Below are positions 832 through 32,000 of a DNA stretch of 32,000 nucleotides, piece after piece (the first letter of the stretch is position 1; every line of letters starts with the position of its first letter). The DNA comes from Nonomuraea sp. H19 (GTDB taxonomy: Bacteria > Actinomycetota > Actinomycetes > Streptosporangiales > Streptosporangiaceae). The stretch is from contig NZ_JBQHCV010000011.1 in the NCBI RefSeq assembly GCF_052068215.1, forward strand, positions 242,003 through 274,002, written 5' to 3'. A program made the translations under genes and the position numbers. The notes under the pieces are model-generated. The model saw nothing but the letters and a program-made list of their open reading frames with translations, did not search any database and was not told the origin of the DNA.

Positions 832-939
832 TTTTGCCGCATTAGTGGGTCTTCCCAGGCTCTCTCGCGCGGGTTACCTTCCGTTCGGCGAGGCTCGGGG
901 GAATTGCCCGCCTTCCTGTCTCACAGGGGGAAGTCCCGT

Positions 940-2421: not shown

Positions 2422-2427
2422 CCCGAC

Positions 2428-2459
2428 CGGCCGGGCAGACCCATGCGCCTGCCCGGCCG
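2428..2459 (+). terminator. Candidate GC-rich hairpin terminator after the first aminopeptidase gene
   Basis: cggccgggcag (2428-2438) pairs perfectly with ctgcccggccg (2449-2459), with a 10-nt loop. It starts 7 nt after the stop codon. There is no U-tract. Confidence 0.4.
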
Positions 2460-2496
2460 ACCTGCCCGGCCGACCTGCCCGGCCGACCTGCCCGGG
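2448..2496. repeat. 13-bp tandem repeat cctgcccggccga, about 3.7 copies
   Basis: Perfect units at 2448-2460, 2461-2473 and 2474-2486, plus a partial unit at 2487-2496. An inverted partial copy lies at 2428-2438. Confidence 0.9.
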
Positions 2497-2546
2497 CGTC
2501 TGATGCGCCCGGCAGGAACGGTCTGCTCGGCCCGGCCCGCGAACGG

Positions 2547-4148
<1,602 letters not shown>

Positions 4149-4166
4149 CTAGGTGCCACTCGGACT

Positions 4167-4778
4167 CTATGAACCCACGGCGAGGCGGCCGGACCGAAGG
4201 GCGGTCACCACCTTCTCCGGACTGTCGGCGAAGAAGCGGATCGAGGTGGCCTCGGCGCGGCGGCCGAGCGGGCGGACGAGCGCGACAGGCTCGGTCAGCT
4301 CGATCGTGATATTGGTCTGCGAGGCGACCGCGACCCTCAGCTGCCCGTCCTTGATCGAGACCATGTGCTCCTCGTTGTAGTTGCGGCCCGTGTGCACGGT
4401 GGCGATCCGATCGCGGGGCACGCGCACGTCGAAGTACGCGCCGTACCTGATGCGCAGCTCATCCTCCGTGATGACGTGCGGCCGGGTCACGCACGCCCCG
4501 GCCAGCGCGACCCCGAACAGCAGCCCGTAGACGTCGGCGATCAGCACCGCGAACCGCAGCCAGGCCGGTACGTCCATCGCCACCAGCAGCAGGTCCACCA
4601 CCACCGTCTCGACCGCCATCGCGAAGAGCATTAGCCACAGCATGAACGCCTGCTCCTTGGCGTACGTGACGACGGTCGCCCCCGCAGGGACGCCGTGCCG
4701 GCGGCGTACAACCCACAGGCCGACGCTGGCCAGGCCCTTCAGCTCGAACCCCACGACCCGTAGCGCGGCTCTGACCAT
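4167..4778 (-). CDS. Membrane protein of unknown function (two or three TM helices plus a soluble C-terminal domain)
   Basis: Hydrophobic helices FMLWLMLFAMAVETVVVDLLLVAM and LRFAVLIADVYGLLFGVALAGA. GAGGAA lies 5 nt before the ATG. Actinobacterial codon bias. No family recognised with confidence. Confidence 0.6.
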   Translation of the reverse strand: MVRAALRVVGFELKGLASVGLWVVRRRHGVPAGATVVTYAKEQAFMLWLMLFAMAVETVVVDLLLVAMDVPAWLRFAVLIADVYGLLFGVALAGACVTRPHVITEDELRIRYGAYFDVRVPRDRIATVHTGRNYNEEHMVSIKDGQLRVAVASQTNITIELTEPVALVRPLGRRAEATSIRFFADSPEKVVTALRSGRLAVGS

Positions 4779-4802
4779 CGGCTTCCTCTCCCTCGGGTGC
4801 GA

Positions 4803-5335
4803 TCACCTCCATGAGACACATTGACGTCGCGTCAAGGTCAACCCGAGACATGCGTTACGAGCCCGGCGGAACCGTGTCAGTGGAGGATGCGGTGCAGGAC
4901 GTGGACCAATCGGCCCCGGCCATCGCCGTGGACCGCTACCGCTGGCCCAGGGTGCACAGGATCGCGTCCATCGGGTCGTTCTCGGGATGGGACCTATCCT
5001 GGCGGCCTGGCTGCGCACGGTCAGATCGGCCAGTTCCAGGGCGACCGGTCGGCGCTCGGCCTCGTACGTGTCGAGCAGCGCGTCGGAGGTCCGGCCCGCG
5101 AGCATGGCGGCGATCTTCCACGCCAGATTGTGCGCGTCTTGAACCGCGGAGTTGGCGCCCAGGGCGGCGGCGGGCGGCCACACACGGGCGGCATCGCCGA
5201 CGAGGAGGACCCGGCCGTCGCGGAATCCGTCGGCGGCGATCACGTAGCGGGCTCTGCACAGCACACGATCGAGGTCACCGGCACGCCCAGATCGGTGAGG
5301 GGGCGGCGGCCGGGCTCACCGGGCGATCCGGTCTA
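4803..5335 (-). pseudogene. Relic of an FAD-dependent aromatic-ring monooxygenase (PheA/TfdB-like)
   Basis: ARYVIAADG is joined directly to GRVLLVGDAARVWPPAAALGANSAVQDAHNLAWKIAAML..LLDTYEAERRPVA. In intact homologues roughly 100 or more residues separate these blocks. The N-terminal FAD-binding part is missing. The downstream sequence continues only in another frame and through a TAG. Confidence 0.7.
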
Positions 5336-5470
5336 GGGGAGCCAAAAGGGGGAGCCAACACCCTCAGAGCAGGGACGACGGCTCTCGACGGCCTGGGGTG
5401 CCCATGCAGGTGCAAGGCTCCGACCACCTCAGGCCTGGTCAGATCCGCTTCCCCTGCCGTTGCGTCAAGG

Positions 5471-5902
5471 TCAAGCGCCGACCTCGTCGGCCAGGCGTGA
5501 CAGGTAGGCCGCGAACTGCCGACGGTCGCGTTCGTCCCAGGAGGCGGTCAGCTCGTCGAAGGCGTGCCGCTGCCACTGCCGGGACCCGGCCAGCAACGCG
5601 TGCCCGCGCTCCGTGAGCCGCAGGGAGGCGCGGCGCCGGTCGCGTTCGGAGGTGGCGCGGGCGAGGTAGCCGGCCTCGACGGCGTCCTTGACCATGCGGC
5701 TGGCGCCCGAGTGGTCGAGCCCGAGCTGGTGCGCCACGGTGCCCACGGTCGGGGCGTCGCCGGTCTGGGTGTGTACGGCCTCCACGACCAGGATGTGCTG
5801 TACATGCCGCGGCTCCCCGGTCAGCTCGTGCGACGCCTGTCCGGCCCATCGGCGCGACCAGAACCGCACCAGCCGGAACAGGGCGGGCCCACCGTCGTTC
5901 AT
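5471..5902 (-). CDS. MarR-family transcriptional regulator
   Basis: Winged-helix block PTVGTVAHQLGLDHSGASRMVKDAVEAGYLARATSERDRRRASLRLTERG. Divergent from a VOC gene, with palindromes in between. Confidence 0.9.
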   Translation of the reverse strand: MNDGGPALFRLVRFWSRRWAGQASHELTGEPRHVQHILVVEAVHTQTGDAPTVGTVAHQLGLDHSGASRMVKDAVEAGYLARATSERDRRRASLRLTERGHALLAGSRQWQRHAFDELTASWDERDRRQFAAYLSRLADEVGA

Positions 5903-8611: not shown

Positions 8612-11600
8612 ATGCCGGGCGGATGGGAGGTGCTCGGGCTGCCCGGCGACCCCGCGCCCGGGAACCCGGGCGAGGTTCGGGGACTCGCCGGCCGGCTGCT
8701 CAAGGAAGCGCAGCTCGCCGAGGACAACACGGCCAAGTTGACGGCGGTGGCGGGTGGCAGCTCGGCGTTGCGGATGCGCGGGGATTACGCGGCGCGGTAC
8801 GCCGAGGCGCTGGGCGAGCTGCCCGGCGAGCTGACCAAGCTGGGCAAGGCGTACCGGGGCGCCGGGAACGCGCTGATGGCCTATGCCGGTTCGCTGGAGC
8901 AGGCCAAGACCCAGGCCGGTACGGCGCTGCGCCAGGGCCAGACGGCCGACGTCCAGTACCGGGGCGCGTTACGGGAGGTACAGGCGCAGCTGCCGGGCGC
9001 GGGCGCGGTGGGGAGCCTGGCGGAGGCGGAGTCGGCGGTCGGCGCGGCGGATCCGGCGGTGCAGGCGGCGGTGCGGCCGGCGGTGCAGCGGGCCCGCGCC
9101 GCCGACGCCGACCGGGCGCGGGCGCGGCGGATCGCCGATGAGGCGGCCCAGTTGCGCGGTGATGCCGAGAGCCGGGCGGTGCGGGAGATCGATCAGGCGC
9201 TGGCGGGCAGCGGCATCAAGAACAAGTCGTTCCTGCAGAAGGCGTGGGACGTGATCTCGACGCCGTTCCGGTCGTGGGATGACTTCGTGTCGTTCGCGGG
9301 CAAGGTGGCGCTGGTGGCCGGGCTGGTGGTGCTGGTGATCGGCACCGGCGGGCTGGCCGGGGTGGTGCTGGCCGGGGTCGCGGTGGCGGCCGGGGCGGTG
9401 GTGCTGGCCGACGCGCTCAACAAGTACCGCCAGGGCAGGGGCTCCTTGGGGCAGGTGGCGCTGGCCGCGGTCGGGGTGATCCCGGGCGGCAAGAGCATCG
9501 GCCTGCTGGCCCAGGGGGCCAAGGCCGTGACCGGGCTGCGCGGCGCCGCCGCGGCCGTCCGCGGCGGCGGAGGCACGCTGCTGGGACTCGGCGCGGCGGG
9601 GATCCGCGGCGGCCGGGCCGCCCTGGGAGCCGGGGCGACGTCGATCCGCTCGGCGATCCAGGCGGGCGGGTCGCGGGCCGGTGCGACGGCGACCGCGGCC
9701 TGGCAGCGCGGCCGGCAGTTCTTCAGCAAGGACCCGGTGCACTTCCCCACCGGTATCGTGCTGCTCCCGCAGACGGACGTGGACCTGCCGGGGGCACTGC
9801 CGCTGCGGCTGGAGCGCACACATCTGTCCAGCTACCGTACGGGGCGCTGGTTCGGCCGATCCTGGGCCTCGACCCTGGACCAACGCGTGGAGGCGGACGC
9901 CGAAGGCGTGTGCCTGGCCACCGCCGGCGGCGCCGTACTCGCCTTCCCGCATCCCGAGCCCGGCCAGGCCGTCCACCCCGACGACGGTCCCCGCCTGGCA
10001 TTGCGCGCGGAAGGGACCGGCTACACGGTCACCGACCCGCACACCGGCCACACCACCCACTTCGCACCATTACCGCAAGAGGATTCGAAGGTGCTGCCGA
10101 TCGCGGCGATCACCGACCGCAACGGCGACCGCGTCGACTTCCACTACACCGACGGCCTGCTCACCGAGGTGACCCACTCCGGCGGCTACCACCTGGACAT
10201 CGAGACCGCGCACGGCCGCATCGTGGAGATCCGCCTGCGCGGCGCCGGCCAGAGCCTCGTCTCCTACGCCTACGACGAGGCCGGCGACCTGACCGAGGTG
10301 ACCAACTCTTCTGGCCTGCCGCTGCGTTTCACCTACGACGACGACGGCCGGATGACCCGCTGGCACGACCGCATCGGCACCTGGTACGCCTACACCTACG
10401 ACGGGGAAGGCCGCTGCGTTTACGGCACCGGCAAGGACGGCATCTTCAACACGGAGATCAGCTACGGGGACGGCGTCACCCGCGCGTACGACTCACTGGG
10501 CCACGCCACCACGTACCACTACAACGACCTCCTTCAGGTAGTCGCCGAGACCAACCCCCTCGGCCACGTAACCCGCTACCACTGGGACCACTACGACCGC
10601 TTGCTGTCGCAGACCGACCCGCTGGGCCGCACCGTGCGGTATACCTACGACGAGTTCGGCATGCCGCTTTCGATCAGCCGCCCGGACGGTGCCACTCGTC
10701 GCCACACCTACAACGACCTGCACCTGCCGGTCACTATCACCGACTACGACGGCAGCGTCCACGCGTTCGAATACGACGAGCGCGGCAACATCATCAGCGA
10801 CGGCGACAGCCGCTTCACCTACAACCAGCACGGACACCTGGCCGCGATCACCAACGCCCTGGGCCACACCTGCAGCGTGCGAACGGATGCTGCCGGGCTG
10901 CCGGTGGAGGTCACCGATGCGCTGGGCGGGACGACCCGCTATGAGCGCGATGCTTTTGGGCGAGCCACCGCCATCACCGACGCCCTCGGCAACACCACCC
11001 GCTACACCTGGACAGTGGAGGGCAAGCCGGCCAGTCGCACGCTACCTAGCGGCGTGACCGAACGCTGGCGGTATGACGGGGAGAACAACCTCATCGAACA
11101 CGTCGACGCGCTCGGCCGGGCGACCCACACCGAAGTCGGCTCCTTCGACGTGGCCACCGCACTGACCACCGCGGGCGGTGCCCGTCTGGAGCTCGCCTAC
11201 GACACCGAGTTGCGCCTCGCCCAGGTCACCAACCCCCAGGGGCTGACCTGGCACTACACCTACGACGCGGAAGGCGACCTGATCCGGGAGACCGACTTCA
11301 ACCACCGTACGCTGACCTACGTCCGGGACGCGGCCGGCAGGTTGATCGAACGCGTCAACGGGGCCGGAGAGTCCACCAGCTACACCCACGACGTTCTGGG
11401 CCAGGTCATCGAGCAGCGCTCGGAGGACCGCGTCACCACGTTCGCCTACGATGCGCTCGGCCGCCTGACCTGGGCGGTGAACCCGGATGCCGACCTGCGC
11501 ATCAGTCGAGACGCTCACGGCAGGATCACCGCCGAAACCTGCAACGGGCGCACGCTCACCTCGGCCTACGACGCACTCGGCCGACGCGTACACCGCCGCA

Positions 11601-13036
11601 CCCCCTCAGGAGCGGAAGCGGTTTGGGATTACAACCCGCGCAACCAGCCCAAGATGCTGCAGACAGCCGGCCAGACGGTCGCTTTCGCCTATGATCCAGC
11701 GGGCCACGAAATTGGTCGAAATTTCGGCACAAACGTCTCGCTGATTCATGACTGGGACCCCGACTCCCGCCTCCGCGCCCAGACCCTCCGCACCGGAAAT
11801 CGGCTCATCCAGCGGCGCACCTACGACTATCGCCCAGACGGCCATCTCATTCAGATCGACGACCTGCTGTCCGGCCGCCGCCACTACGACCTGGATCCGG
11901 TCGGCCGCGTTACCGGTGTCCAGGGCGCGAACTGGTCGGAGCGCTACACCTACAACGCCGCCGGCCAGATCACCGACGCCACATGGCCGGCGTCGTCGGA
12001 CGCCCGCGGCCCTCGCGCCTACACGGGGACAATGATCCGCCAGGCGGGCCGTACGCGATATGAGTACGACCGTCAGGGCCGGGTGACCCTCCGCCAGCAG
12101 AAGGGCCTGTCATCGAGACCCAGGACATGGCGCTACACGTGGGACGCCGACGACCGCCTGACAGGCGTCACCACGCCGGATGGCGCGACCTGGCGCTACT
12201 TGTACGACCCCCTCGGCCGCCGCGTAGCGAAAGAACGGGTGAACGGTTCCGAGCGTACGGATTTCGTCTGGGACGGCCTCACCCTGGCCGAGCAGACCAC
12301 CGAGGACCGCACGACGGTATGGGACTGGATCCCCGGCACCTTCCACCCTCTCTCCCAGACAGAGCGCCGAGCCGATTCCCAGGAGTGGATCGATGAGCAG
12401 TTCTACGCCATCGCCACTGACTTGATCGGCACCCCTGCCGAACTCGTGGATCCAGACGGCAACCTGGCCTGGCGCACGAGGCAGGACTTGTGGGGAGCCT
12501 CGACCGACCTTGTCTCGACCGGAGCCGACTGTCCCTTGCGGTTCCCTGGCCAGTACGCGGACGAGGAGTCCGGTCTTCAGTACAACTACTTCCGTCACTA
12601 CGACCCGGCCAGCGCTCATTACCTGGCAAGCGACCCCATCGGCCTCTCCGGTGGCTGGAACCCGCACGCCTACGTGGACAACCCGAAGTCATGGTGCGAC
12701 CCGCTGGGGCTGAGCCCGTACGGGACCTCGATCTGGAGTTCGACGAGCAGCAGGACGTCGGTCGAGAACGCGTATGGTCACTGGCGCAGCCACGGGCGGG
12801 AATTCCCGCACCTGAACAACGCGAAGGAATATGTGGAGGAAGCGACGGGCTTCCTGACCGGCGGCCATCCGGGCACGCTCACCAGGCACCGGCCGAACGG
12901 CGACGTCGTTCGCTACAATCCGCAGACCGATCAGTTCGGCGTGCGGAACGCGCAGGGCGTTCCGCGAACATATTTCATACCGGACCCGCAGGTCCACGGA
13001 TATCCGACCAATCTGGACTACTTCAATGCCCAATAA
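8612..13036 (+). CDS. Rhs/YD-repeat polymorphic toxin with N-terminal helical secretion-signal-like domain and a TM block
   Basis: N-terminus: WEVLGLPGDPAPGNPGEVRGLA...YAGSLEQAKTQAGTAL. Hydrophobic block: VALVAGLVVLVIGTGGLAGVVLAGVAVAAGAVVLA. DUF6531-like block: DPVHFPTGIVLLPQTDVDLPGALPLRLERTHLSSY..FGRSW. Dozens of YD repeats (YTYDxxGR). Rhs core end: RFPGQYADEESGLQYNYFRHYDP...NPKSWCDPLGL. Confidence 0.95.
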   Translation: MPGGWEVLGLPGDPAPGNPGEVRGLAGRLLKEAQLAEDNTAKLTAVAGGSSALRMRGDYAARYAEALGELPGELTKLGKAYRGAGNALMAYAGSLEQAKTQAGTALRQGQTADVQYRGALREVQAQLPGAGAVGSLAEAESAVGAADPAVQAAVRPAVQRARAADADRARARRIADEAAQLRGDAESRAVREIDQALAGSGIKNKSFLQKAWDVISTPFRSWDDFVSFAGKVALVAGLVVLVIGTGGLAGVVLAGVAVAAGAVVLADALNKYRQGRGSLGQVALAAVGVIPGGKSIGLLAQGAKAVTGLRGAAAAVRGGGGTLLGLGAAGIRGGRAALGAGATSIRSAIQAGGSRAGATATAAWQRGRQFFSKDPVHFPTGIVLLPQTDVDLPGALPLRLERTHLSSYRTGRWFGRSWASTLDQRVEADAEGVCLATAGGAVLAFPHPEPGQAVHPDDGPRLALRAEGTGYTVTDPHTGHTTHFAPLPQEDSKVLPIAAITDRNGDRVDFHYTDGLLTEVTHSGGYHLDIETAHGRIVEIRLRGAGQSLVSYAYDEAGDLTEVTNSSGLPLRFTYDDDGRMTRWHDRIGTWYAYTYDGEGRCVYGTGKDGIFNTEISYGDGVTRAYDSLGHATTYHYNDLLQVVAETNPLGHVTRYHWDHYDRLLSQTDPLGRTVRYTYDEFGMPLSISRPDGATRRHTYNDLHLPVTITDYDGSVHAFEYDERGNIISDGDSRFTYNQHGHLAAITNALGHTCSVRTDAAGLPVEVTDALGGTTRYERDAFGRATAITDALGNTTRYTWTVEGKPASRTLPSGVTERWRYDGENNLIEHVDALGRATHTEVGSFDVATALTTAGGARLELAYDTELRLAQVTNPQGLTWHYTYDAEGDLIRETDFNHRTLTYVRDAAGRLIERVNGAGESTSYTHDVLGQVIEQRSEDRVTTFAYDALGRLTWAVNPDADLRISRDAHGRITAETCNGRTLTSAYDALGRRVHRRTPSGAEAVWDYNPRNQPKMLQTAGQTVAFAYDPAGHEIGRNFGTNVSLIHDWDPDSRLRAQTLRTGNRLIQRRTYDYRPDGHLIQIDDLLSGRRHYDLDPVGRVTGVQGANWSERYTYNAAGQITDATWPASSDARGPRAYTGTMIRQAGRTRYEYDRQGRVTLRQQKGLSSRPRTWRYTWDADDRLTGVTTPDGATWRYLYDPLGRRVAKERVNGSERTDFVWDGLTLAEQTTEDRTTVWDWIPGTFHPLSQTERRADSQEWIDEQFYAIATDLIGTPAELVDPDGNLAWRTRQDLWGASTDLVSTGADCPLRFPGQYADEESGLQYNYFRHYDPASAHYLASDPIGLSGGWNPHAYVDNPKSWCDPLGLSPYGTSIWSSTSSRTSVENAYGHWRSHGREFPHLNNAKEYVEEATGFLTGGHPGTLTRHRPNGDVVRYNPQTDQFGVRNAQGVPRTYFIPDPQVHGYPTNLDYFNAQ
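12713..13036 (+). other. C-terminal variable toxin domain (107 aa) of the Rhs protein, family unassigned
   Basis: Starts right after the DPLGL cleavage motif (12698-12712). Sequence: SPYGTSIWSS...VENAYGHWRSHGREFPHLNNAKEYVEEATGF...VVRYNPQTDQFGVRNAQGVPRTYFIPD. GC is visibly lower than in the YD-repeat body. Confidence 0.65.
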
Positions 13037-13292
13037 TGGCAATCTGTACTGTCGAGTCTGCGGACTGCTTCAGAAGGGCCCGCCGTGGGGCGAGGACGGA
13101 AGAACGCCTTCGTGGGACATCTGCGCCTGCTGTGGAATTGAATTCGGCTATCAAGATGCCACGCCGGCGGGTGTCCTCCGAGCCAGGAACGCGTGGATCG
13201 CCAAAGGATGCCCTTGGTTTGACGAGCCGAAGCGACCTCCGGGTTGGCACATGGAAGAGCAGCTCGCGCACGCTCAAGACGTGGACGCGTGA
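13026..13292 (+). CDS. Small Cys-rich (CxxC...CxxC) protein; candidate cognate immunity protein
   Basis: The ATG lies 11 nt inside the toxin gene end. 88 aa, containing YCRVCG...ICACCGIEFGY. It is in the classic immunity position directly after an Rhs C-terminal domain and in the same lower-GC patch. No clear SD. Confidence 0.55.
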   Translation: MPNNGNLYCRVCGLLQKGPPWGEDGRTPSWDICACCGIEFGYQDATPAGVLRARNAWIAKGCPWFDEPKRPPGWHMEEQLAHAQDVDA

Positions 13293-13478
13293 GGGGCGCC
13301 TCGACCCGCCGGTCCAGAATGAGCCTGTCCGACCCCGTCCGGTGCGCCGCCGCTGAGGTCGAGACCCGGTGGTCTCAGGGCCTGATGGCCAGATCAGTAA
13401 TGGCCGTCGCTTTCGTGCTCGACGTTTGTGAACTTGCCGGTTCGCAGGGCCTCTCTGGCCGAGGCCATCCGGGTGTGG

Positions 13479-14384
13479 TCACGAGGACAGCGCGTCGCGG
13501 ATGACGGTGATCAACGTCTGCTGCAAAGGGGACAGGCGCTTGTCTGTGCGCCAGACGACGAAGACCGGCAGGCGCGGCTGGGTGCCGGCGATCCGGATCT
13601 CGTGAAGCGCGCCTGTGGCCAGTTCTGCGGCCACCGAGGCGCGAAAGAGCAGCGCGACGCCGAGCCCGGCGCGGACGGCGTGTTTGATCGCCTCGGGGTG
13701 GCCGAACTCGATGACCACCTCGCGGTCGGTGACGCCGAGTTCGGCGAGCGCTGTGTCCTCCAGGTCGCGCCGGATGGAGGAGCGCGGCGTGGCGACGAAG
13801 GGCAGCCGGGCCAGTTCCTCCACCGAGATGCTGTCGTTCACCGTGCCGGGCGCGCCGGCGAGCACGAGATCCTGGTGACCGGCGAACTGCCCGGTGAGGC
13901 CGCGGCTGTGGGGAATCCGCGGGGCGATCGGGACGGCCAGGTCGCACAACCCGGAGGTGACGGCCTCCCAGATCTGGTTCGGGTCGAACACGTGCGCCGC
14001 GATCCGCGCGCCCGGATGGGCCAGGGCGAAGTCGGTGAGGACGGGCGGCAGCAAGTAGCTGCCCACGGTCATGCTGGTGGCCACGGCCACGGCCCCCGCG
14101 GTGCCGCCGGCGAGGCCGGCCAGCTCGCGATCGAGCTCGTTGCCGCGGCGCAGTGTGTCGCGGGACCACCGGTAAGCGATGTGGCCCGCGTCGGTGAGCT
14201 CCAGGCGCTGGCCCACGCGGTGGAACAGCTCGACGCCCAGCCGTTCCTCAAGCGAACGGATGTGGCCGCTTACGACGGGCTGCGAGACATACAGGTGGGC
14301 GGCGGCGCGGCCCACGCCTCCCTGCTCCACGACAGCGCAGAAGACCTCGAGCTTGTGCAGGGAGATGCGGTTGTCTATAGCCAT
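13479..14384 (-). CDS. LysR-family transcriptional regulator
   Basis: N-terminal HTH LHKLEVFCAVVEQGGVGRAAAHLYVSQPVVSGHIRSLEERLGVELFHR followed by a substrate-binding domain. Start is ATG at 14384; the longer tracked ORF extension is rejected. Confidence 0.9.
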   Translation of the reverse strand: MAIDNRISLHKLEVFCAVVEQGGVGRAAAHLYVSQPVVSGHIRSLEERLGVELFHRVGQRLELTDAGHIAYRWSRDTLRRGNELDRELAGLAGGTAGAVAVATSMTVGSYLLPPVLTDFALAHPGARIAAHVFDPNQIWEAVTSGLCDLAVPIAPRIPHSRGLTGQFAGHQDLVLAGAPGTVNDSISVEELARLPFVATPRSSIRRDLEDTALAELGVTDREVVIEFGHPEAIKHAVRAGLGVALLFRASVAAELATGALHEIRIAGTQPRLPVFVVWRTDKRLSPLQQTLITVIRDALSS

Positions 14385-24615: not shown

Positions 24616-26285
24616 CGCGTCAGCCCTCGATACAGCCAGCGCGCGGTGAGGGCGACCACGGCCACGGGCACCGCGGTCGCGATCACCGACTGGGCCGTCA
24701 GCGTGCCGGCCGCGCTCATGAAGTGGCGCGACTGCTCCAGCAGGATCAGCGGCAGGTGGTCGCCCGACGGCCAGTTGAGCAGCAGCCCGACGATCGTGTC
24801 GTTCCACACCAGCACGAACGCCAGCACGCCGGCCAGCACCACGGCCGGACGCGCCTCGCGTACCACGTGCAACAGGTCCGAGCGGTGCCGCGCGAGCATC
24901 GGGGTCGTCACCCGGGTGAAGGCGCCGTGCAGCACCAGCACCGCCAGCGGGATCACCAGCGCCGCGTGCACGATGGCCAGCGCCGGGGCGGTGCCGACGA
25001 GAGGGCTGAGCCGCTGCTGCAGCGGCACCGCGAACGCCTGCGGCGGCAGCGCGGCCAGCGCCACCGCGACCAAGAGCGCGGGCCGCCAGGCGCGACGGGG
25101 CAGCAGGTGCTCGTGGGCCAGCACGTACGCGGCCGGCACCGCGGCCACCAGCACCAGCCCGACGACCACGACGGCACGCAGGAACGTGGTGCCGAGCACG
25201 CCGGTGAAACCGGTGTCGGCCAGCACCTCCCCGTATGAGCCGAGCGTCCACGGGCCGCCACTCCACCATCCCGACAGCGCCACCGCGACCGGGTCGCGCA
25301 GCGAGGTGAGCACCAGCACCGCGAACGGCAGCAGCCACAGCACCGCGACCACCGCGCACAGCAGCCAGACGCGCCGGTCACGCCGGGGCGCGGGCGCGGC
25401 GACCGGCTCCGGCCAGTTGACCCGGCCGCGCAGCCCGCCGAGTGAGGGCACCGCCAGCACCGCCACCAGCAGGGACAGCACCACCGCGAGCGCCGCGGCC
25501 CGCGGGTGGCCGAGATCGCCGTGGTGCCGCCACCAGAACAGCCCGCCGCCCTCGACCTCGGCCTGAATCGACCCAGGCGCGCCCATCAGCACCAGGTCGA
25601 AGACGCGAGCCGCCGCCACCAGCGCGAACAGGTACGCCAGCGCCGCCGGACCGGCCAGGGCCGGCGCCACGACCGACCACAGCCTGCGCCGCCGGCCGAC
25701 GCCGAACGCCCTGGCCACCCGCAGCAGGTTGGTCGGCAGCCGGGCCAGCGCCTCGTGGAAGACCAGGAACGCGACCCCGGCCCACTGCCACACGAACGCC
25801 AGCCCCATCACCAGCCAGATCCAGATCGGGCCGAGGAACGCCACGTCCGTGCCCAGCACCGCGTTGACCAGGCCGCGCCGCGGGTTGGTGTCGAACAGCA
25901 GCCGGAAGACCGCGCCCGTGGTGAGCGGTGAGACCGCGGCCGGCAGGACCAGCAGGAAACGCAGGCCACCTCCGACCACCGGGCCCGCGTTCCGCGCCAG
26001 CCACGCCAGGCCGAGCCCCACCGCGCACACGACCACGGCCAGCGCCAGCCAGATGAGCGAGTTGCCGAGCGACTGGAGCACCTGGCCGTTGCTCAGCACG
26101 TCGTAGCCGGGGAGGCTGATGAACACGGTCACGCAGAGCGGGATCAAGATGACGCCCGCCGACAGCAGGACCGCGAGCAGCAGATAGAGGGACGCGCGCC
26201 AGCGGCCGAGCCCGTGCCTGACCACCGGGATCCGGGCGTCGTGGTACGGAGCCACCTCGAACAGGAAGGCGTTCCGCTCCCTCAT
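24612..26285 (-). CDS. Fused double permease of a carbohydrate-type (CUT1-like) ABC importer (MalF-like plus MalG-like halves in one protein)
   Basis: 557 aa with about 12 TM helices in two similar halves. The first-half EAA-like loop is LPTNLLRVARAFGVGRRRRLWSVVAPAL. The second-half loop is poorly conserved. Start overlaps the upstream stop (ATGA at 26282-26285). Confidence 0.85.
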   Translation of the reverse strand: MRERNAFLFEVAPYHDARIPVVRHGLGRWRASLYLLLAVLLSAGVILIPLCVTVFISLPGYDVLSNGQVLQSLGNSLIWLALAVVVCAVGLGLAWLARNAGPVVGGGLRFLLVLPAAVSPLTTGAVFRLLFDTNPRRGLVNAVLGTDVAFLGPIWIWLVMGLAFVWQWAGVAFLVFHEALARLPTNLLRVARAFGVGRRRRLWSVVAPALAGPAALAYLFALVAAARVFDLVLMGAPGSIQAEVEGGGLFWWRHHGDLGHPRAAALAVVLSLLVAVLAVPSLGGLRGRVNWPEPVAAPAPRRDRRVWLLCAVVAVLWLLPFAVLVLTSLRDPVAVALSGWWSGGPWTLGSYGEVLADTGFTGVLGTTFLRAVVVVGLVLVAAVPAAYVLAHEHLLPRRAWRPALLVAVALAALPPQAFAVPLQQRLSPLVGTAPALAIVHAALVIPLAVLVLHGAFTRVTTPMLARHRSDLLHVVREARPAVVLAGVLAFVLVWNDTIVGLLLNWPSGDHLPLILLEQSRHFMSAAGTLTAQSVIATAVPVAVVALTARWLYRGLTR

Positions 26286-27502
26286 AAGGCGCCCTCCTTG
26301 CTGCCCACGACGAGCTTGTCGCGGGCGTGGCCGGCGGCCGTGGCCGGGTCGACCAGGCCCACGACGACGTCAGAGAACAACTCGGTCAGCACCCGCCACA
26401 GCCCGCGCCCGTCGCCGCCCTCCAGAGCGCCGATGAGCCCGTCGGACAGGTCGTAGTGGGCGTTCCTGGGGGCGAGCAGTTCCTGCGCGGGGCCGCGCAG
26501 CATCGGGTTGGTCGGCAGCGTGAACGGCGTCAGGAAGCCGCCGTCGTCGATCCAGTCCGTCAGCGCGTCGCGCGCGCCCGCCGTGCGCCGCCTGGTCAGC
26601 CAGTTCACGAACTCGATCGCGTCGGCCCCGTCCTTCATCGCCACCGCCACGTCCCCGCCGACCACCAGCGGCGGCGCGTTCCTCCCGTAGGCGGGGAAGC
26701 GGAAGTGCTGCGCGGTGATGCCTTTCGCCGCGTAACGGTCGATGACCGGCAGGGCGAAGTCGGGTGCGGCCACCAGGTCGGCGGTGCGATGGGCGAAGAC
26801 GTCGAGGATCGAGTCGTGGAACTGCATCGTGAGCGCTCGCCTGCCCTGGTCGGGCGTGAATGCCTCGCGCCAGATCGTGGCCAGCAGGGCGAGTGCCTCC
26901 TTCACCGGCGCCGCGCCCCACGCGTCCGGATCGACCCGCCCCGCGACGGGGAAGAGCGCGTCGTACGCCCCGGGGGCGTAGGCGAGCAGGACGTTCTCGA
27001 ACCAGTCGCTGAGCACCCATCCGTCGGCGGCGCCGATCGCGAGCCTGCCGCGGGCGGGCCGCCAGGTGGCCAGGTCCGCGGGCGGCCCGGACTCGCCTGC
27101 CCGCTGCCAGACGAGCGACTTGTGCGCGATCTTGAACCAGGCGCCGAGCTGGGCCCCGCCACCGTATGGCGTCACGAGCGCGCGCCAGAACTCGGGCTGC
27201 ACATGATCGCCGGTCCACGGCTTGATGCGGCGCTGGACCTCCGGATCGAAGAGCAGACCCAGCCTGGGGATCACGGCCACGTCGGGGAGGACCTCTTTGG
27301 CCGGGCCGCGCAGCAGGGCGGCGATGTTGTCGCCCGCCGAGTAGACGCTGACCCGCCTGCCGGGGTATTGGCCGACCACGTCGTTGAAGCGCCGCAGCTC
27401 CTCGCCGCTCCAGACCACCGCCACGCGCAGCCGGTCCGCGCCGCAGCCCGCCAGGGCCAGCGCCGGGATCGCCGCCAGGAGCGCCCTACGGCTCAGGGAC
27501 AT
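26282..27502 (-). CDS. ABC transporter extracellular solute-binding lipoprotein (family 1-like)
   Basis: Lipobox MSLSRRALLAAIPALALAGCG. Size and pattern match sugar-type solute-binding proteins. Sits between the ATPase-like and permease genes. Confidence 0.85.
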   Translation of the reverse strand: MSLSRRALLAAIPALALAGCGADRLRVAVVWSGEELRRFNDVVGQYPGRRVSVYSAGDNIAALLRGPAKEVLPDVAVIPRLGLLFDPEVQRRIKPWTGDHVQPEFWRALVTPYGGGAQLGAWFKIAHKSLVWQRAGESGPPADLATWRPARGRLAIGAADGWVLSDWFENVLLAYAPGAYDALFPVAGRVDPDAWGAAPVKEALALLATIWREAFTPDQGRRALTMQFHDSILDVFAHRTADLVAAPDFALPVIDRYAAKGITAQHFRFPAYGRNAPPLVVGGDVAVAMKDGADAIEFVNWLTRRRTAGARDALTDWIDDGGFLTPFTLPTNPMLRGPAQELLAPRNAHYDLSDGLIGALEGGDGRGLWRVLTELFSDVVVGLVDPATAAGHARDKLVVGSKEGAL

Positions 27503-28253
27503 CGATGATCTCCCAGAACAGCGAAGGGGAAGCCAGGCTGGCCACCCTGGTCCTGTCGTCGGTGACGACGAGCACGGCCAGACCGGGATCGGCGCCCAGC
27601 GCCGCGCTCACCGCCGCGTGGCAGGGCCCGCAGCCGGTGCGGTCCTCGACCACCATGACCTTGACCGGCACCAGCCTGCACAGGGTGCGGGCGAGCGCGA
27701 CGCCCAGCCGCTCGTCGTGGGCCAGCTCGTGCGGCCGGGAGCGCAGGAAGCCCTGGATGTCCATCCGCCTGGCCATGAAAGCGACCCGGCCGTGCACGAA
27801 CGACGGCGCCAGGTCGTCACGCGCGGCCAGCGCGAGGTTCTGCTCGACGGTCAGGTGCGGCAGCAGCCCGGCGCCCGCGGGGACCAGCCCGATCTCGCGC
27901 TCGGCCGGCAGCCACATGGTGATCTCCTGCCCGCCGACGATGATCCGGCCGCCGACCGGCATCTCCAGGCCGAGCAGGAGATCGGTGAACGCGTCGGCCT
28001 CGGCGCAGTCGGCGGCCACCACCACGGCCGCCCCGCCGGATTCCACGGTCAGCGGGTAGCGCGACAGGCGACGGCGAGTCCCATGTGTTTCCCACGTGAG
28101 GTCAGAGAGCTCGAGAAGTGGCACGTCAGCAACCGCCGTCAACTCCGGATGTCGTCCCCGTTCCGGACTTGACGTTTTCACAAACGGTGAGTCACGGCAA
28201 CGCGATTGACCAGACCCACCAAGCGCATCCAGGCCTCCGGCCACTGGGTGCAC
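27486..28253 (-). CDS. Degenerate ABC ATPase-like protein (all catalytic motifs lost)
   Basis: Collinear with MalK-type NBDs: LLELSDLTW...LTVESGGAAVVV, LLLGLEMPVGGRIIVGGQEI, AEREIGLVP, LLPHLTVEQNL. Motif changes: Walker A is AADCAEADA, signature is LAHDE, Walker B is MVVEDR, H-loop is TDD. The start is uncertain (ATG 28253, GTG 28181 or TTG 28142). Confidence 0.7.
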   Translation of the reverse strand: MHPVAGGLDALGGSGQSRCRDSPFVKTSSPERGRHPELTAVADVPLLELSDLTWETHGTRRRLSRYPLTVESGGAAVVVAADCAEADAFTDLLLGLEMPVGGRIIVGGQEITMWLPAEREIGLVPAGAGLLPHLTVEQNLALAARDDLAPSFVHGRVAFMARRMDIQGFLRSRPHELAHDERLGVALARTLCRLVPVKVMVVEDRTGCGPCHAAVSAALGADPGLAVLVVTDDRTRVASLASPSLFWEIIDVPEP

Positions 28254-28328: not shown

Positions 28329-28697
28329 TCAGCCCAGCATCAGCGCCGTCACGAACTGCAGCAGGTGCCAGGCCACGTAGGCGCCCACCGAGCAGAACGC
28401 CCACTCCTTGCCCCGCCTGATCCTGGACACCCAGCGCAGTTCCTCGACCGGCTCCTTCCGTACCCTGATGGTCCCGGTCACCAGGTACGCCGACGTCAGC
28501 CAGGCGAGCCATGACCCCGTGATGAGCCCGAGCGAGAGGGCGAGCAGGATCTCGGACCCGTCCGGCATCTCCCAGGGGGAGAGCTGCCGGGTCCAGAGGG
28601 CGAGCACCCCGGCGAGCAGCGCCACGGTGATTCGCCGGTCCTTGCGTGCCTGTCGCTTGAGCCACTGTAGGTCTCGTCGTAGATGGTTCTTGAGCAT
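28329..28697 (-). CDS. Small membrane protein of unknown function (about 122 aa, 3 TM helices)
   Basis: Helices ITVALLAGVLALW, ILLALSLGLITGSWLAWLTSAYLV and AFCSVGAYVAWHLLQFVTALML. GGAGG lies 8 nt before ATG 28697. The tracked GTG 28706 sits inside the SD and is less likely. Confidence 0.5.
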   Translation of the reverse strand: MLKNHLRRDLQWLKRQARKDRRITVALLAGVLALWTRQLSPWEMPDGSEILLALSLGLITGSWLAWLTSAYLVTGTIRVRKEPVEELRWVSRIRRGKEWAFCSVGAYVAWHLLQFVTALMLG

Positions 28698-28752
28698 CCG
28701 GATCACCTCCGTGGCGATTAGCTGGTTAGCACCAGCTAACGGGAGGATCCGG
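28698..28752 (-). promoter_or_regulatory. Nested inverted repeats in the leader of the small membrane gene; outer stem covers its Shine-Dalgarno
   Basis: Inner perfect repeat TTAGCTGGT-tagc-ACCAGCTAA (28718-28739). In the - strand RNA sense, the outer arms CCGGAUCCUCC and GGAGGUGAUCCGG can pair (7+4 bp with a 2-nt bulge) immediately before the AUG. Confidence 0.5.
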
Positions 28753-28801: not shown

Positions 28802-31800
28802 TCAGGCTGTTTCCCGAAGCTCTTCCGTCACCCGCTGCGCTTCGAAGACGTCCCCCACGTCTTCGAGCGTCCGCACGGCCTCGGCCAGATATCCGATGGC
28901 CGCACGCCGGTCGCCGAGCCTGGCCGAGATCAGCCCCAGCGCGCGCAGCGCACAGCCGAGATCCCGCCGGGTCCCGCATCCGAGGTGCACGTCCCTGGCC
29001 TGCGTGGCGTAGACCAGCGCCTCCTCGCACCGGTCCAGGTCGAGCAGGATCATGGCCAGCGTCGTGAGCGCCGCCGCCCACCGGTCCGTGGTCCCGGTCT
29101 CGTTCTGCAGCTCGGCGGTCTCCCTGGCGGGCTCCAGCGCCGCGGCCGGCCGGCCCGCCGTGTGCAGCGCCTGCGCGATCGACAGCAGCGCGCTGGCCCG
29201 GTTGTCGCGCAGCTCCTCCCTGATCGCCAGCGACGCCTTGGCCGCCCGCAGCGCGGGCTCGTGCAGCCCGAGCGACAGGTACGTGTACGCCAGCGTCTCC
29301 TGCACGTCCGCCTCCACCCGCCGGTTCCCCATGCCCTGCACGATGTCGAGGGCCTCCAGCGCGTACACGAACGCCACCTGCGGCAGCCCCTGCCGCCGCC
29401 GCACCCTGGCGAGCCTGTTGAGCATCCGGGCCTCGACCGGCTCGTCGCTGATCACCCGGCTGATCGTCAGCGCCTGGTTCAGGAAGTCGTCGGCCCGCAG
29501 GTAGTCCGACAGCCGCCAGTGCACCAGCCCGATGTCCCCGAGCGTCTCGGCCTTGCCCTGCTCGTGGTGGAGCTCGACCTGGATGGCCAGCGCCTGCTCG
29601 TAGTACGCCAGCGCCTCGTCGTACCGGGAGCCGTTGCGCGCGATGCGCCCGAGCGCGCACAACGCCCGCCCGCAGCCGTACTGGTCGCCGGTCGCGGTGT
29701 AGCCGGCCAGTGCCCGCTCCGCGTCGCGCCGCGCGTCGAGCGGCAGCCGCAGCAGGTCGTAGATCTCCGCCAGGCAGAGCAGGGTCTCCGCTTCGGCGTG
29801 CTCGTCGCCCAGCTCGTGGCAGATCGACAGCGCCTCCAGGCCCTCCGACAGCGCCGCGTTGGGCTCGCCCAGGTTCTGCTGCACCCTGGCCAGGATGATC
29901 AGGCTCTGCGCGGTGCCCCTGCGGTCGCCGATCTGCTCCCGTACGTCGAGCGCCTGGCCCGCGTAGTGCAGCGCCAGCTCGTACCGCTCCTGGGACAGGT
30001 GCAGCCGGGACAGGGTGTGCAGGCAGCTCGCGACGCCGGTCAGGTCGCCGATCTCCCGGTAGAGGCCGAGCGCCTCCTCGCCGCACTTGAGCGCGTCCTC
30101 GCTGTTGCCGGCGATGCCGTGCACCTCGGCCAGGTCGTTGAGCGCGCGGGCGCGCCCCACGCCGTCCTCCAGGGAGGTGTAGTCGGCCAGCGCCTCGCTG
30201 ATGAACCGGGCGGCCAGGGTCGACGGCCCTATGTCGCGGTGGATGGAGCCCAGGTTCCCCCGCATGAGCGCGATCGCCCGCCGGTTGCCGACCTGCATGG
30301 CCGACGTCAGCCCGGCCTGCTGGATCTCCAGGTTGTTCTCGTAGTAACGCAGCCGCCGGAACGGCTCGAACACGGCCTCGGCGAGCCGCCAGGCCATCCC
30401 GTACGCGCCGCTCTCCTCGGCCAGCCGCACGGCCGACACCAGCGAGCGCCGCTCGGCCTCGAACCACTCGCGCGGCGTCGCGGGGTCGGTCGCGACGGCC
30501 AGGTAATGGTCGAGCAGCCGTGCCCTGGCCTCGCGCACGCCGGCCTCCGCGTGCCTGCCCAGCTCCCTGGCCAGCCGCTTGACCAGGTCGTGCACCCGGT
30601 AGCGGGGCCCGGGCAGCGGCTCGACCAGGTACGCCCGATGCAGCCCCTCCACGGCGGCCACGGCCTCGTCCACCGGCACGCCGAGCGCGGCGGCCAGCAC
30701 CTGCGGCGTGAAGTCGCGCCCGGGCACCAGCCCGACGTGCCGGAACGCGCGCCGCTGCGCCGGGCTCAGCGACTCGTACGCCAGGTCCAGCGCCGACCGG
30801 AACGCCTCCTCCGGGTCGCCCGCCATCACCGGGTCGGGCCTGCGCAGCTCCCGCACCCGCGACTGCACGCTCATCCCGGGGTTCTCGGCCAGCTTGGCCG
30901 CCGAGATCCGCAGCGCGAACGGATGGTACGAGCACAGTCTGGCCAGTTCGGCCAGCGCGTCCCGGTCGGCGGCCCGCGGCGAGTTCTCCCCGAGCACCGC
31001 CACCAGCAGTGCCACCGCGTTGCCCGGATCGAGCACCGGCAGGTCCATGAGGTCGGCGTGCCCGGTGGCCCGCAGCGGCGCCATCCGCGTCCTGCTGGTC
31101 ACCAGCGCCACGCAGTCCTTGCTGCCCGGCAGCAGTGCCCGCACCTGGGCGGGATCGGCGGCGTTGTCGAGGACGAGCAGCAGCCTGCGCCCGGCGATCC
31201 TGCTGCGGTACAGCAGCATCAGCTCGGCCTCGTCGGCGGCGGGCATGTGCTCGCCGATGCCGAGCGAGCGCAGGATCTGGCCGAGCGCCTCGGCGGAGGT
31301 CATGGGCGGCTGGCTCGGCGACTGGCCGCGCAGGTCGATCATGATGTGCCCGTCGGGGAACCGGTCGGCGTGCAGGTGCGCCCAGTGCGTCACCAGGGCG
31401 GTCTTGCCCACGCCCGGCAGGCCCTGCACGACCATGGTGTTCGTGCGGCGGGGCCGGTCCAGCCAGTTGGTGAGCAGGTCGAGGCTCTGCTGCCGCCCGG
31501 TGAAGTCGGGCACGTCGGCGGAGAGCTGGCGCGGCTTGGGGACCTCGCCGACCGGCAGCGGCTCGGCCACGGCTCCGGGGCGGGTCAGGAACGGCACGAC
31601 GCGGCCGGTCCACGGCTCCGACAGGTGCTCCCAAGGGCCGGCGGCGTCCCGCAGCGCGGGTGGGTCGGCGATGCGCAGCCGCCGGTAGCCGGGGCGTACC
31701 AGCCAGCCGCGCTGGACCCACTGCGTGAGCTGGCGCTGCACCACGTCCGGCGAGCTGCCGACCAGGTCGGCCAGGGTCTCCATGGACAGCGGCGGGGCCG

Positions 31801-32000
31801 ACTCCGAGGCCAGCGCGTACCGCTCGTCGAGATGCAGCAGCCACACGGCCAGCCGGGCGGCGACGGGGGCGCGGGCGAGCCCCTCGTGCCTGCGGGCCGC
31901 CACGTTCCTGGCGAACAGCTCCTGCACCAGCGCGGTCGCCACGGCGGGGGTGGCGGCGGCGTGCTCGCGCAGCCGCCGCAGGTCGATGGGCCAGGCGCGG
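28802..32000 (-). CDS. Crp/Fnr-type wHTH fused to NB-ARC ATPase and TPR array (STAND regulator); 5' end outside window
   Basis: The reading frame stays open upstream of the tracked GTG 31942 to the window edge (RAWPIDLRRLREHAAATPAV...). Crp-type HTH: SMETLADLVGSSPDVVQRQLTQWVQRGWLV. Walker A: QGLPGVGKTALV. Walker B: RLLLVLDNA. About 500 aa of TPR-like repeats follow. Confidence 0.85.
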   Translation of the reverse strand, partial: RAWPIDLRRLREHAAATPAVATALVQELFARNVAARRHEGLARAPVAARLAVWLLHLDERYALASESAPPLSMETLADLVGSSPDVVQRQLTQWVQRGWLVRPGYRRLRIADPPALRDAAGPWEHLSEPWTGRVVPFLTRPGAVAEPLPVGEVPKPRQLSADVPDFTGRQQSLDLLTNWLDRPRRTNTMVVQGLPGVGKTALVTHWAHLHADRFPDGHIMIDLRGQSPSQPPMTSAEALGQILRSLGIGEHMPAADEAELMLLYRSRIAGRRLLLVLDNAADPAQVRALLPGSKDCVALVTSRTRMAPLRATGHADLMDLPVLDPGNAVALLVAVLGENSPRAADRDALAELARLCSYHPFALRISAAKLAENPGMSVQSRVRELRRPDPVMAGDPEEAFRSALDLAYESLSPAQRRAFRHVGLVPGRDFTPQVLAAALGVPVDEAVAAVEGLHRAYLVEPLPGPRYRVHDLVKRLARELGRHAEAGVREARARLLDHYLAVATDPATPREWFEAERRSLVSAVRLAEESGAYGMAWRLAEAVFEPFRRLRYYENNLEIQQAGLTSAMQVGNRRAIALMRGNLGSIHRDIGPSTLAARFISEALADYTSLEDGVGRARALNDLAEVHGIAGNSEDALKCGEEALGLYREIGDLTGVASCLHTLSRLHLSQERYELALHYAGQALDVREQIGDRRGTAQSLIILARVQQNLGEPNAALSEGLEALSICHELGDEHAEAETLLCLAEIYDLLRLPLDARRDAERALAGYTATGDQYGCGRALCALGRIARNGSRYDEALAYYEQALAIQVELHHEQGKAETLGDIGLVHWRLSDYLRADDFLNQALTISRVISDEPVEARMLNRLARVRRRQGLPQVAFVYALEALDIVQGMGNRRVEADVQETLAYTYLSLGLHEPALRAAKASLAIREELRDNRASALLSIAQALHTAGRPAAALEPARETAELQNETGTTDRWAAALTTLAMILLDLDRCEEALVYATQARDVHLGCGTRRDLGCALRALGLISARLGDRRAAIGYLAEAVRTLEDVGDVFEAQRVTEELRETA

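Follow-up and report, generated by a model that had tools for sequence, protein, structure and literature searches.

Conservation of an ABC nucleotide-binding domain homologue with replaced catalytic motifs in an importer-like gene cassette of Actinomycetota: a possible non-hydrolysing adaptor

Introduction

The nucleotide-binding domains (NBDs) of transporters of the ATP-binding cassette (ABC) type are textbook obligate ATPases. Substituted NBDs which are kept and are functionally important are described for degenerate ABC sites, such as those of TM287/288, TAP1/2, CFTR NBD1 and Pdr5 (PMC7756269, PMC3691448). These degenerate sites of heterodimers keep their Walker A motif and bind ATP tightly, with the second site being fully active. 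In Escherichia coli, the idle importer MalFGK2 holds the STAND protein MalT at the membrane via its NBD subunit MalK, and a transport-linked change releases MalT (PMC10427625). In the GlnH-GlnX-PknG system of Actinobacteria, a solute-binding lipoprotein reports its extracellular ligand without any transport, the signal passing through a membrane protein to a TPR-containing protein in the cytoplasm (PMC6069109). The protein described in this study is encoded in a stretch of 32,000 nucleotides from Nonomuraea sp. H19 (contig NZ_JBQHCV010000011.1, positions 242,003 to 274,002 of the forward strand), hereafter called the window, and is a homologue of MalK-type NBDs in which all catalytic motifs are replaced (hereafter pseudo-NBD). 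A preliminary description, made from the sequence alone, had proposed that it is maintained as a pseudo-enzyme and is not a pseudogene.

The analysis presented here agrees with this proposal. It further places the pseudo-NBD in a conserved four-gene cassette, together with a solute-binding lipoprotein, a fused permease and a membrane-anchored STAND protein with a disabled P-loop, and suggests that it keeps docking on the permease, possibly as an adaptor without ATPase function. Full-text literature searches yielded no published description of the cassette or of a family of importer NBDs lacking the Walker A Lys.

Results

The four genes of the cassette are encoded on the minus strand of the window, the pseudo-NBD gene being the most upstream:

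27486..28124, minus strand: pseudo-NBD gene, 212 aa, fold of an ABC nucleotide-binding domain, every catalytic motif replaced, no TOBE domain
26282..27502, minus strand: solute-binding lipoprotein (SBP), 406 aa, Tat-like RR signal, LAGC lipobox, divergent CUT1-type sugar-binding
24612..26285, minus strand: fused two-domain permease, 557 aa, 2 x BPD_transp_1, MalF/MalG-like, UgpA/GlcT/GlcU-like, ATGA overlap with the SBP stop codon
22291..24615, minus strand: STAND protein, 774 aa, with two hydrophobic helices at the N-terminus, an NB-ARC-like NOD and TPR repeats, its start overlapping the stop codon of the permease (ATGA)

The longest open reading frame (ORF) at the pseudo-NBD locus spans 27486..28253 (-), and all peptide strings which the preliminary description had quoted for it are present in its translation. 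Orthologues called by NCBI start, however, at the position equivalent to GTG 28124 (MPLLEL..., 212 aa), and calls by JGI lie six codons earlier, at TTG 28142 (218 aa). Judged from the orthologues, the true start is most likely GTG 28124 or TTG 28142 and not GTG 28253, and because of these start calls the gene is best set at 27486-28124. The frame is intact and its codon usage is normal for the genome, as had been stated before, with a GC content at third codon positions (GC3) of 0.915. The window itself is high-GC actinomycete DNA (GC 0.66-0.77), and the nearest orthologues of its proteins are nearly all from Nonomuraea.

The Pfam model ABC_tran (PF00005) matched the pseudo-NBD with 27.1 bits (cut-off: 25) over residues 91-193 only. 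NCBIfam models gave matches between 1e-19 and 1e-9, among them PotG (4e-19), ThiQ (3e-16) and UgpC (3e-14), but also PotA, CysA-type and MalK, with all scores below the respective equivalog cut-offs (UgpC: 52.8 vs. 432; MalK: 37.9 vs. 568; PotG: 68.6 vs. 613) and lying 5-10 times under the family cut-offs. A phmmer search against the PDB retrieved CysA (1z47), ModC (2onk) and SugC (7cad) with E-values of about 1e-11. An AlphaFold2 model based on 32 orthologues reached a pLDDT of 93.7 and a pTM of 0.91, and its top Foldseek matches were CysA, PotA, FbpC, MalK and ModC (E-values: 1e-17 to 1e-14; TM-score: about 0.75). The predicted model, the Foldseek matches and the partial Pfam match thus all indicate the RecA-like core and helical subdomain of an ABC NBD, and the homology to these domains is far beyond chance.

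The register of the former catalytic motifs was taken from an alignment with canonical NBDs and from HMMER alignments to CysA, ModC and SugC, and all coordinates were verified by translation. These alignments bear out that the protein is collinear with MalK/UgpC-type NBDs, and they locate the following replacements:

27990..28016, minus strand: former Walker A, GPSGCGKTT replaced by AADCAEADA (Lys to Ala, Thr to Asp), acidic and with neither Lys nor Ser/Thr
27867..27884, minus strand: former Q-loop, Gln to Ala (VPAGAG)
27711..27725, minus strand: former signature, LSGGQ replaced by LAHDE
27642..27659, minus strand: former Walker B, hhhhDE replaced by VMVVED (Asp to Glu, catalytic Glu to Asp)
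27555..27563, minus strand: former H-loop, THD replaced by TDD (His to Asp)

The substitutions of Walker A, Q-loop, signature and H-loop are therefore those listed in the preliminary description, whose register was correct. Walker B is likewise substituted as claimed, although the string given for it (MVVEDR) was out of register by one residue, a trivial difference. In addition, the D-loop (SALD) is replaced by GCGPCHA, about 14 residues are deleted between D-loop and H-loop, and the protein ends about 20 residues past the H-loop, which confirms the claimed absence of the MalK-type (TOBE) C-terminal regulatory domain. With these replacements, the pseudo-NBD most probably neither binds nor hydrolyses ATP.

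Relatives were collected by a scan with one genome per species, which gave 94 relatives; 80 loci were retained. These originate from Nonomuraea (28 loci), Streptosporangium (six), Actinoallomurus (two), Micromonospora and other Micromonosporaceae (about 35) and, for the rest, from Actinomycetota and Acidimicrobiales metagenome-assembled genomes (MAGs). All 80 loci contain an intact pseudo-NBD ORF of about 195-225 aa, the exception in length being a long form of 361 aa (L056), and these orthologues are intact across several actinobacterial orders and down to 34% identity. Not one of the 80 loci encodes the Walker A Lys, and the Gln to Ala exchange of the Q-loop (VPAG) is the consensus of the entire family. 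Other motifs differ between clades: outside the clade of the window, the signature reads LSEAQ or LSPGQ and Walker B reads VVDL or VVDA. In the window's clade, the P-loop contains three acidic residues; that of the other clade is shorter by one residue.

Some motifs appear to have been newly acquired. HELAHDERL, EDRTGxGPCHAAVSAA and VVTDDRTRVASLASPS are strongly conserved in the window's clade, the clade-specific RTGxGPCHAAVSAA standing directly after the former Walker B in place of the D-loop. A conserved Trp11 is located close to the A-loop position. Within the 'G.GPCHAAVS' segment (residues 164-172, approximately nt 27609-27635), which is found in the Streptosporangiales-type clade only, Cys168-His169 are near-invariant and could form a metal site, a redox site or an interface. 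The CGPC of 'GCGPCHA' resembles a thioredoxin-like CxxC. This was rejected, as the first Cys is variable among orthologues (G[CSYF]GPCH) and conservation is limited to the second Cys and the His, in this one clade alone.

Ratios of nonsynonymous to synonymous substitution rates (dN/dS) were determined pairwise by the simple Nei-Gojobori method, and the claim made here rests on close pairs, since a GC3 of 0.92 compresses dS and values of distant pairs were for this reason set aside as unreliable. Against its closest relatives, the pseudo-NBD exhibits a dN/dS of 0.22-0.28 with bootstrap upper bounds of 0.35-0.42, which is significantly below 1; for the same reason these values are, if anything, too high. 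Across Nonomuraea, the median dN/dS values of the individual genes are as follows:

Pseudo-NBD: 0.42
Permease: 0.44
STAND protein: 0.51
SBP: 0.55
Neighbouring HTH-NB-ARC-TPR gene: 0.24
Neighbouring FtsK-like gene: 0.15

The cassette is hence under purifying selection, with the pseudo-NBD being among the more constrained genes of its own operon. Neither relaxed selection nor a frameshift in the pseudo-NBD, either of which would have pointed to plain decay, was seen among the orthologues, and the dN/dS values and the 80 intact ORFs support the idea of a maintained pseudo-enzyme. Frameshifts were found in two loci only. Locus L027 (Nonomuraea salmonea, 10648-13590), which originates from a single 10.6-Mb contig, has two in the SBP and two in the permease gene, and locus L003 (10623-11836) has one in the SBP gene. 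Both loci retain intact pseudo-NBD and STAND genes. These frameshifts may be sequencing (indel) errors, or the extracytoplasmic and membrane components may really be decaying.

The block with the highest conservation in the family, shared by both clades, is R.IG.VPAG..LLPHLTV..N, which spans the Q-loop and the first part of the helical subdomain. The corresponding region of MalK provides the cleft that takes up the EAA coupling helix of the permease, and the Glu of the EAA motif forms a salt bridge with 'a conserved arginine in MalK' (PMC6906923). The pseudo-NBD and the permease of the window carry exchanged charges at two positions:

27981..27983, minus strand: pseudo-NBD Asp48, at the MalK Arg47 position (Walker A Lys + 5), charge-reversal column
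25719..25721, minus strand: permease Arg189, first residue of EAA loop 1 (canonically Glu), charge-complementary to Asp48

We take the salt-bridge arginine of MalK to be Arg47, five residues past the Walker A Lys, as in the 2007 MalFGK2 structure. Two clades can be distinguished at this position. In the D-clade, the pseudo-NBD has an Asp and EAA loop 1 starts with an Arg (LLRVARAFG), and in the R-clade, the pseudo-NBD has an Arg and EAA loop 1 starts with an Asp (LADAVRAxG). The D/R combination occurs in 38 loci and the R/D combination in 41, without any mismatch; L027 with its frameshifted permease has to be discounted, which leaves 78 loci and no exception. A census of all columns revealed this to be the sole clade-wide charge reversal among the 212 columns of the pseudo-NBD. 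The 557 columns of the permease include two, the second lying 11 residues further on in EAA loop 1, and both are complementary in direction. A rough estimate of the chance for such a coincidence is 1e-5. The coincidence of the charge swap with a known contact pair argues strongly for a retained docking interface, and the sequences thus support the idea that the pseudo-NBD keeps docking on coupling helix 1 of the permease. The first EAA residue is known to vary naturally (E/N/R/K), with a predicted NBD contact, in mycobacterial sugar importers (PMC8603345).

A tblastn search with the proteins of the window showed the order pseudo-NBD, SBP, fused permease, STAND protein in nearly all of the 80 loci, and metagenome contigs had it as well. 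Stop and start codons overlap at every junction, the ATG of the SBP gene (27502) overlapping the pseudo-NBD stop (27486) by 17 nt, from which the four genes are predicted to be translationally coupled and co-transcribed. Scans of the cassette region for promoters, terminators and Rfam families yielded no matches, and a comparison of the flanking ORFs of four representative loci with all loci unveiled no fifth gene that is conserved across genera.

The single SBP sequence had no match in Pfam, NCBIfam or PDB searches. A profile of 21 orthologues matched CUT1 sugar-binding proteins, namely RafE (5e-12), the arabinoxylo-oligosaccharide-binding BlAXBP, the chitin-oligosaccharide-binding NagB and the trehalose-binding LpqY, and the orthologues in L082 and L083 match SBP_bac_1/8. 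Together with its lipoprotein signal, the protein has the features of the extracytoplasmic component of a type I importer. EAA loop 1 of the permease is recognisable and conserved, its Glu being exchanged for the Arg. Degeneration is stronger in EAA loop 2, which lacks about 17 residues in Nonomuraea and Streptosporangium and has no confident alignment to the EAA consensus. The preliminary description had raised the question of whether another NBD gene could serve this permease. Locally, none was found: the 32-kb window contains no canonical NBD, and an ORF with a canonical Walker A and LSGGQ lies within 10 kb in only five of the 80 loci. The sole NBD encoded with the system is the disabled one.

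The fourth gene encodes a second protein with a disabled nucleotide-binding site, the decisive position being:

24220..24243, minus strand: disabled STAND P-loop GPVGMGTS (Lys to Thr), GTS being invariant in 18 aligned orthologues

In a table of about 65 orthologues, the P-loop follows GxxGxGTS with three G[AV]S exceptions and never contains a Lys, and the GTS form is also present in a metagenomic long-form cassette. The sensor-1 Arg is lost as well (Arg to Gly/Ser), the 18 aligned orthologues having 'AG' instead of 'SR/TR'. The STAND protein thus has neither GxxxxGK[ST] nor the sensor-1 Arg. Its orthologue in L083 shares 33% identity over 292 aa with the HTH-NB-ARC-TPR protein of the window, which has an intact P-loop (GLPGVGKT; BLASTP E-value: 2e-31); compared with that protein, VTSR is changed to VAGS, and the Walker B LDN and the GxP motif are kept. 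The orthologue in L056 matches Pfam NB-ARC with 39.9 bits. An AlphaFold2 model (pLDDT: 82.7) has its best Foldseek matches with the archaeal STAND-with-TPR protein 6mfv, Apaf-1 and plant NLRs, in line with an NOD fold followed by a helical-repeat sensor. The closest relatives outside the family are NB-ARC-TPR regulators of the AfsR/SARP and XRE types, separated by a wide gap in scores (1e-206 vs. 1e-85). By comparison with these, the DNA-binding head appears in effect to be replaced by a membrane anchor.

The preliminary description was therefore right for the pseudo-NBD itself yet incomplete, as the disabled NB-ARC/TPR gene, the four-gene cassette and the co-evolving permease contact had been missed.

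A full HMMER search of 1.8 billion representatives returned 41 cluster representatives at E-values of 1e-30 or better; below this threshold, the family grades into ordinary NBDs of 350-390 aa. One long subgroup (355-390 aa) has a P-loop of the form G.PGFGGTTLAR (Lys to Gly), VPAGGGLLPH, LSPGQR and a Walker B of VVDAT. Its members P0069, P0072 and P0082 keep a C-terminal TOBE_2 domain, and the long-form contigs contain the same four-gene cassette with an SBP recognised by SBP_bac_1/8. In a neighbour-joining tree, all Lys-less proteins group together against canonical NBDs. The R-clade comprises the long forms, Micromonosporaceae and Acidimicrobiales MAGs, and the D-clade, to which the window protein belongs, comprises Streptosporangiales, Actinoallomurus and some MAGs. 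A likely evolutionary path leads from a MalK/CysA-type ATPase with TOBE domain via the loss of Lys, Gln, Glu and His and the subsequent loss of TOBE to the acidic P-loop of the window's clade. No cassette with the active ancestral state, that is with a Lys-containing NBD or STAND protein, was among the hits of the family searches; the closest relatives with the Lys lie outside the cassette and are ordinary importer NBDs and AfsR-like regulators.

In P0052 (462 aa, metagenome), about 240 additional N-terminal residues without Pfam hit are fused to the pseudo-NBD, and the start of this region (ILAVDVQGFG...RGDGALV...LHAGEV) appears cyclase-like by eye. Upstream of the long-form cassette, the JGI contig of P0072 (sample 3300067032, genes 3-5482 (-)) encodes a 677-aa CHAT + AAA_16 protein and, on the opposite strand, a protein of 1149 aa, a caspase-like/STAND conflict-type pair seen on that contig only.

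Two genes upstream of the cassette in the window are linked to it in Nonomuraea alone:

28329..28706, minus strand: small membrane protein, 125 aa, outside the conserved core
28802..31942, minus strand: regulator of 1046 aa with HTH_Crp, NB-ARC (normal GVGKT P-loop) and TPR

The 1046-aa regulator has a Crp-type HTH instead of the usual SARP/BTAD head, as well as long TPR arrays, and with 86-91% identity across Nonomuraea it is far more conserved than the adjoining cassette. Downstream of the cassette, an ORF of 232 aa (21591-22289 (-)) without Pfam hit is conserved in position in Nonomuraea and has a pairwise dN/dS of about 1.4 in the minus frame, and an ORF of 231 aa (21645-22340 (+)) overlaps it on the opposite strand; the minus frame is either non-coding or a gene evolving neutrally or adaptively. 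A 1400-aa protein with FHA and FtsK/SpoIIIE ATPase domains (16772-20974 (-), EccC/EssC-like) is cassette-linked in Nonomuraea only, where it is 85-95% identical, with a dN/dS of 0.15. Further away, a 1474-aa ORF (8612-13036 (+)) resembles by eye a polymorphic toxin of the Rhs/YD-repeat type, with a helical N-terminal region, a hydrophobic segment, numerous repeats of the YD type, a core end similar to PxxxxDPxGL and a distinct tail at the C-terminus. This ORF and the FtsK/EccC-like ATPase may jointly indicate a locus for type VII-like toxin export. Two convergent secreted paralogues of 505 aa with common motifs (904-2421 (+) and 2547-4064 (-)) appear by eye similar to M28-family aminopeptidases.

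Discussion

The pseudo-NBD shares with NBDs of the MalK, CysA, PotA, SugC and MsiK type its fold, a collinear sequence and partners in the form of a CUT1-like SBP and a MalF/MalG-like permease. The EAA-loop contact position is kept as well, and the long-form relatives still carry TOBE_2. Unlike in these NBDs, Walker A, Q-loop, signature, Walker B Glu, D-loop and H-loop are gone, about 14 residues are deleted and TOBE is lost in the clade of the window. The difference to the degenerate sites of heterodimeric ABC proteins is equally clear, as the pseudo-NBD has lost the very loop that would bind phosphate, and no active consensus partner is co-encoded. Taken alone, the part of the model which regards the protein as a pseudo-enzyme docking on the permease is, in our view, highly probable.

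What the docked pseudo-NBD does is less certain. By analogy to known systems it might be a non-hydrolysing adaptor in an importer-derived receptor that would signal to the STAND/TPR partner, a proposal to which we give about even weight. The wider idea, that a whole ABC importer has turned into a nucleotide-independent receptor in which the dead NBD would be the transducer to an equally dead, membrane-anchored STAND protein, is put forward tentatively and stands somewhat below even probability. According to the adaptor proposal, selection would keep the pseudo-NBD as the cytoplasmic subunit of an importer-derived membrane complex which would no longer pump but work as a receptor. Binding of the ligand-loaded lipoprotein would shift the conformation of the permease, and the pseudo-NBD on the coupling helix would relay this shift to the adjacent STAND/TPR scaffold, comparable to the idle MalFGK2 complex, which holds MalT via MalK and releases it in transport. 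As neither of the two NTPases appears to be active, such a switch would be an equilibrium allosteric one and not nucleotide-driven. In Nonomuraea, the neighbouring HTH_Crp-NB-ARC-TPR regulator (28802-31942) could be the downstream partner of the cassette, its recruitment being a candidate for the output. A second copy of the pseudo-NBD may dock at EAA loop 2.

The comparison with MalFGK2 and MalT holds in so far as an importer NBD is paired with a STAND protein having a helical-repeat sensor domain. MalK, however, is active as an ATPase, and MalT, which is encoded elsewhere, is an active transcription factor that depends on ATP, whereas both counterparts are disabled and co-encoded in the cassette, and the cassette STAND protein is, unlike MalT, membrane-anchored and without a DNA-binding domain. 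In sequence and fold it is closest to the AfsR/SARP- and XRE-type NB-ARC-TPR regulators and to archaeal 6mfv (PMC6468293), but differs from them by two membrane helices in the place of the DNA-binding domain and by the changes of P-loop (Lys to Thr) and sensor-1 (Arg to Gly/Ser). The GlnH-GlnX-PknG system, in turn, uses GlnX rather than an ABC permease, has no NBD-like subunit and has a kinase as output.

Several points weigh against the receptor proposal. The cassette (dN/dS: 0.42-0.55) evolves at about twice the rate of its neighbours (0.15-0.24), and because SBP and/or permease are frameshifted in two of the 80 loci, the constraint has to be called moderate. The charge swap is a single event on one branch of the tree and not a repeated independent covariation, and the literature search did not yield a published statement naming MalK Arg47 as the salt-bridge partner. 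The loss of ATP binding and hydrolysis is deduced from the replaced motifs, and the STAND protein has no recognisable output domain. Its link to the pseudo-NBD consists of co-occurrence and translational coupling, and operon linkage alone shows no contact. Moreover, a distant shared ATPase of the MsiK type could power transport.

This last point leads to the alternative of a hybrid transporter for sugar import, with the pseudo-NBD on coupling helix 1, a shared MsiK/SugC-type ATPase on helix 2 and one partly competent ATP site. It is common for CUT1 importers of actinomycetes to borrow MsiK (PMC4890002, PMC6167110), multitask NBDs are an established type (PMC7658222), and the fused permease has two different coupling loops. 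The SBP family is still sugar-binding-like, and the Micromonosporaceae clade keeps the Ser and Gln of the signature (LSEAQR) and the Asp of Walker B. Yet both composite sites would hold a dead half, one with the Walker A and the other with the signature (LAHDE in the window's clade) of the pseudo-NBD, and known degenerate sites always retain Walker A and ATP binding (PMC7756269). It is also EAA loop 2, with its deletion of about 17 residues in Nonomuraea and Streptosporangium, that is the more degraded loop, and the constant co-encoding of a disabled STAND protein would be left without explanation. We therefore regard the hybrid as unlikely. An ATP-independent facilitator, in which SBP and permease would form a passive or gated channel or a uniporter, the pseudo-NBD a structural cap and the STAND/TPR protein a regulator or assembly factor, agrees with the kept docking contact, the loss of all energy-coupling motifs and the purifying selection on the permease. 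It appears improbable, since passive binding-protein-dependent uptake would not concentrate the substrate and the conservation beyond the docking surface (EDRTGxGPCHAAVSAA, VVTDDRTRVASLASPS) would remain unexplained; we also know of no type I ABC importer that works without ATP.

Conservation of PCH next to the former Walker B and of Trp11 near the A-loop position, in a predicted fold that still forms a pocket, could also fit a metabolic sensor with non-canonical binding of a nucleotide or another small ligand. The three acidic P-loop residues of the window's clade and the shortened P-loop of the other make this quite improbable, and as PCH is absent from the Micromonosporaceae clade, a site based on it would not be family-wide. 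For a conflict or anti-phage defence module around the STAND NTPase it can be said that STAND/TPR proteins are frequent in defence systems, that Avs3 is among the weaker Foldseek hits of the STAND protein and that the window also holds the putative Rhs-type toxin and the FtsK/EccC-like ATPase. However, PADLOC gave no hits for the cassette genes, the STAND P-loop is dead and no effector domain is present, and the cassette seems to be inherited vertically within genera with a stable gene order, so that we consider this module very improbable. The plain decay of a dying ATPase gene, after the permease had switched to a shared ATPase, would account for the loss of all catalytic motifs, the faster evolution of the cassette and the frameshifted SBP and/or permease genes in two of 80 loci. 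It is effectively refuted by the intact ORFs in all 80 loci across orders and down to 34% identity, by a dN/dS significantly below 1, by the newly conserved motifs, by the compensatory charge swap with the permease and by the confident AlphaFold2 fold.

In public records, the proteins of the cassette are labelled 'ATP-binding cassette domain-containing protein', 'thiamine transport ATPase subunit', 'hypothetical' or 'tetratricopeptide repeat protein', which illustrates an annotation problem. If the receptor proposal is true, the cassette would represent, to our knowledge, the first case of an ABC system in which an NBD that binds no nucleotide at all is an obligate subunit, and its partner the first bacterial 'pseudo-STAND' protein. 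The cassette is conserved in Streptosporangiales, in Micromonosporales and in lineages resembling Acidimicrobiia. Such a system would show that the architecture of an ABC importer can be reused purely as a conformational relay, and it would offer a natural system to separate the mechanical (docking, allosteric) from the catalytic role of an NBD. It would also suggest that transporter-to-STAND signalling of the MalK-MalT type is older than the E. coli case and also more widely distributed.

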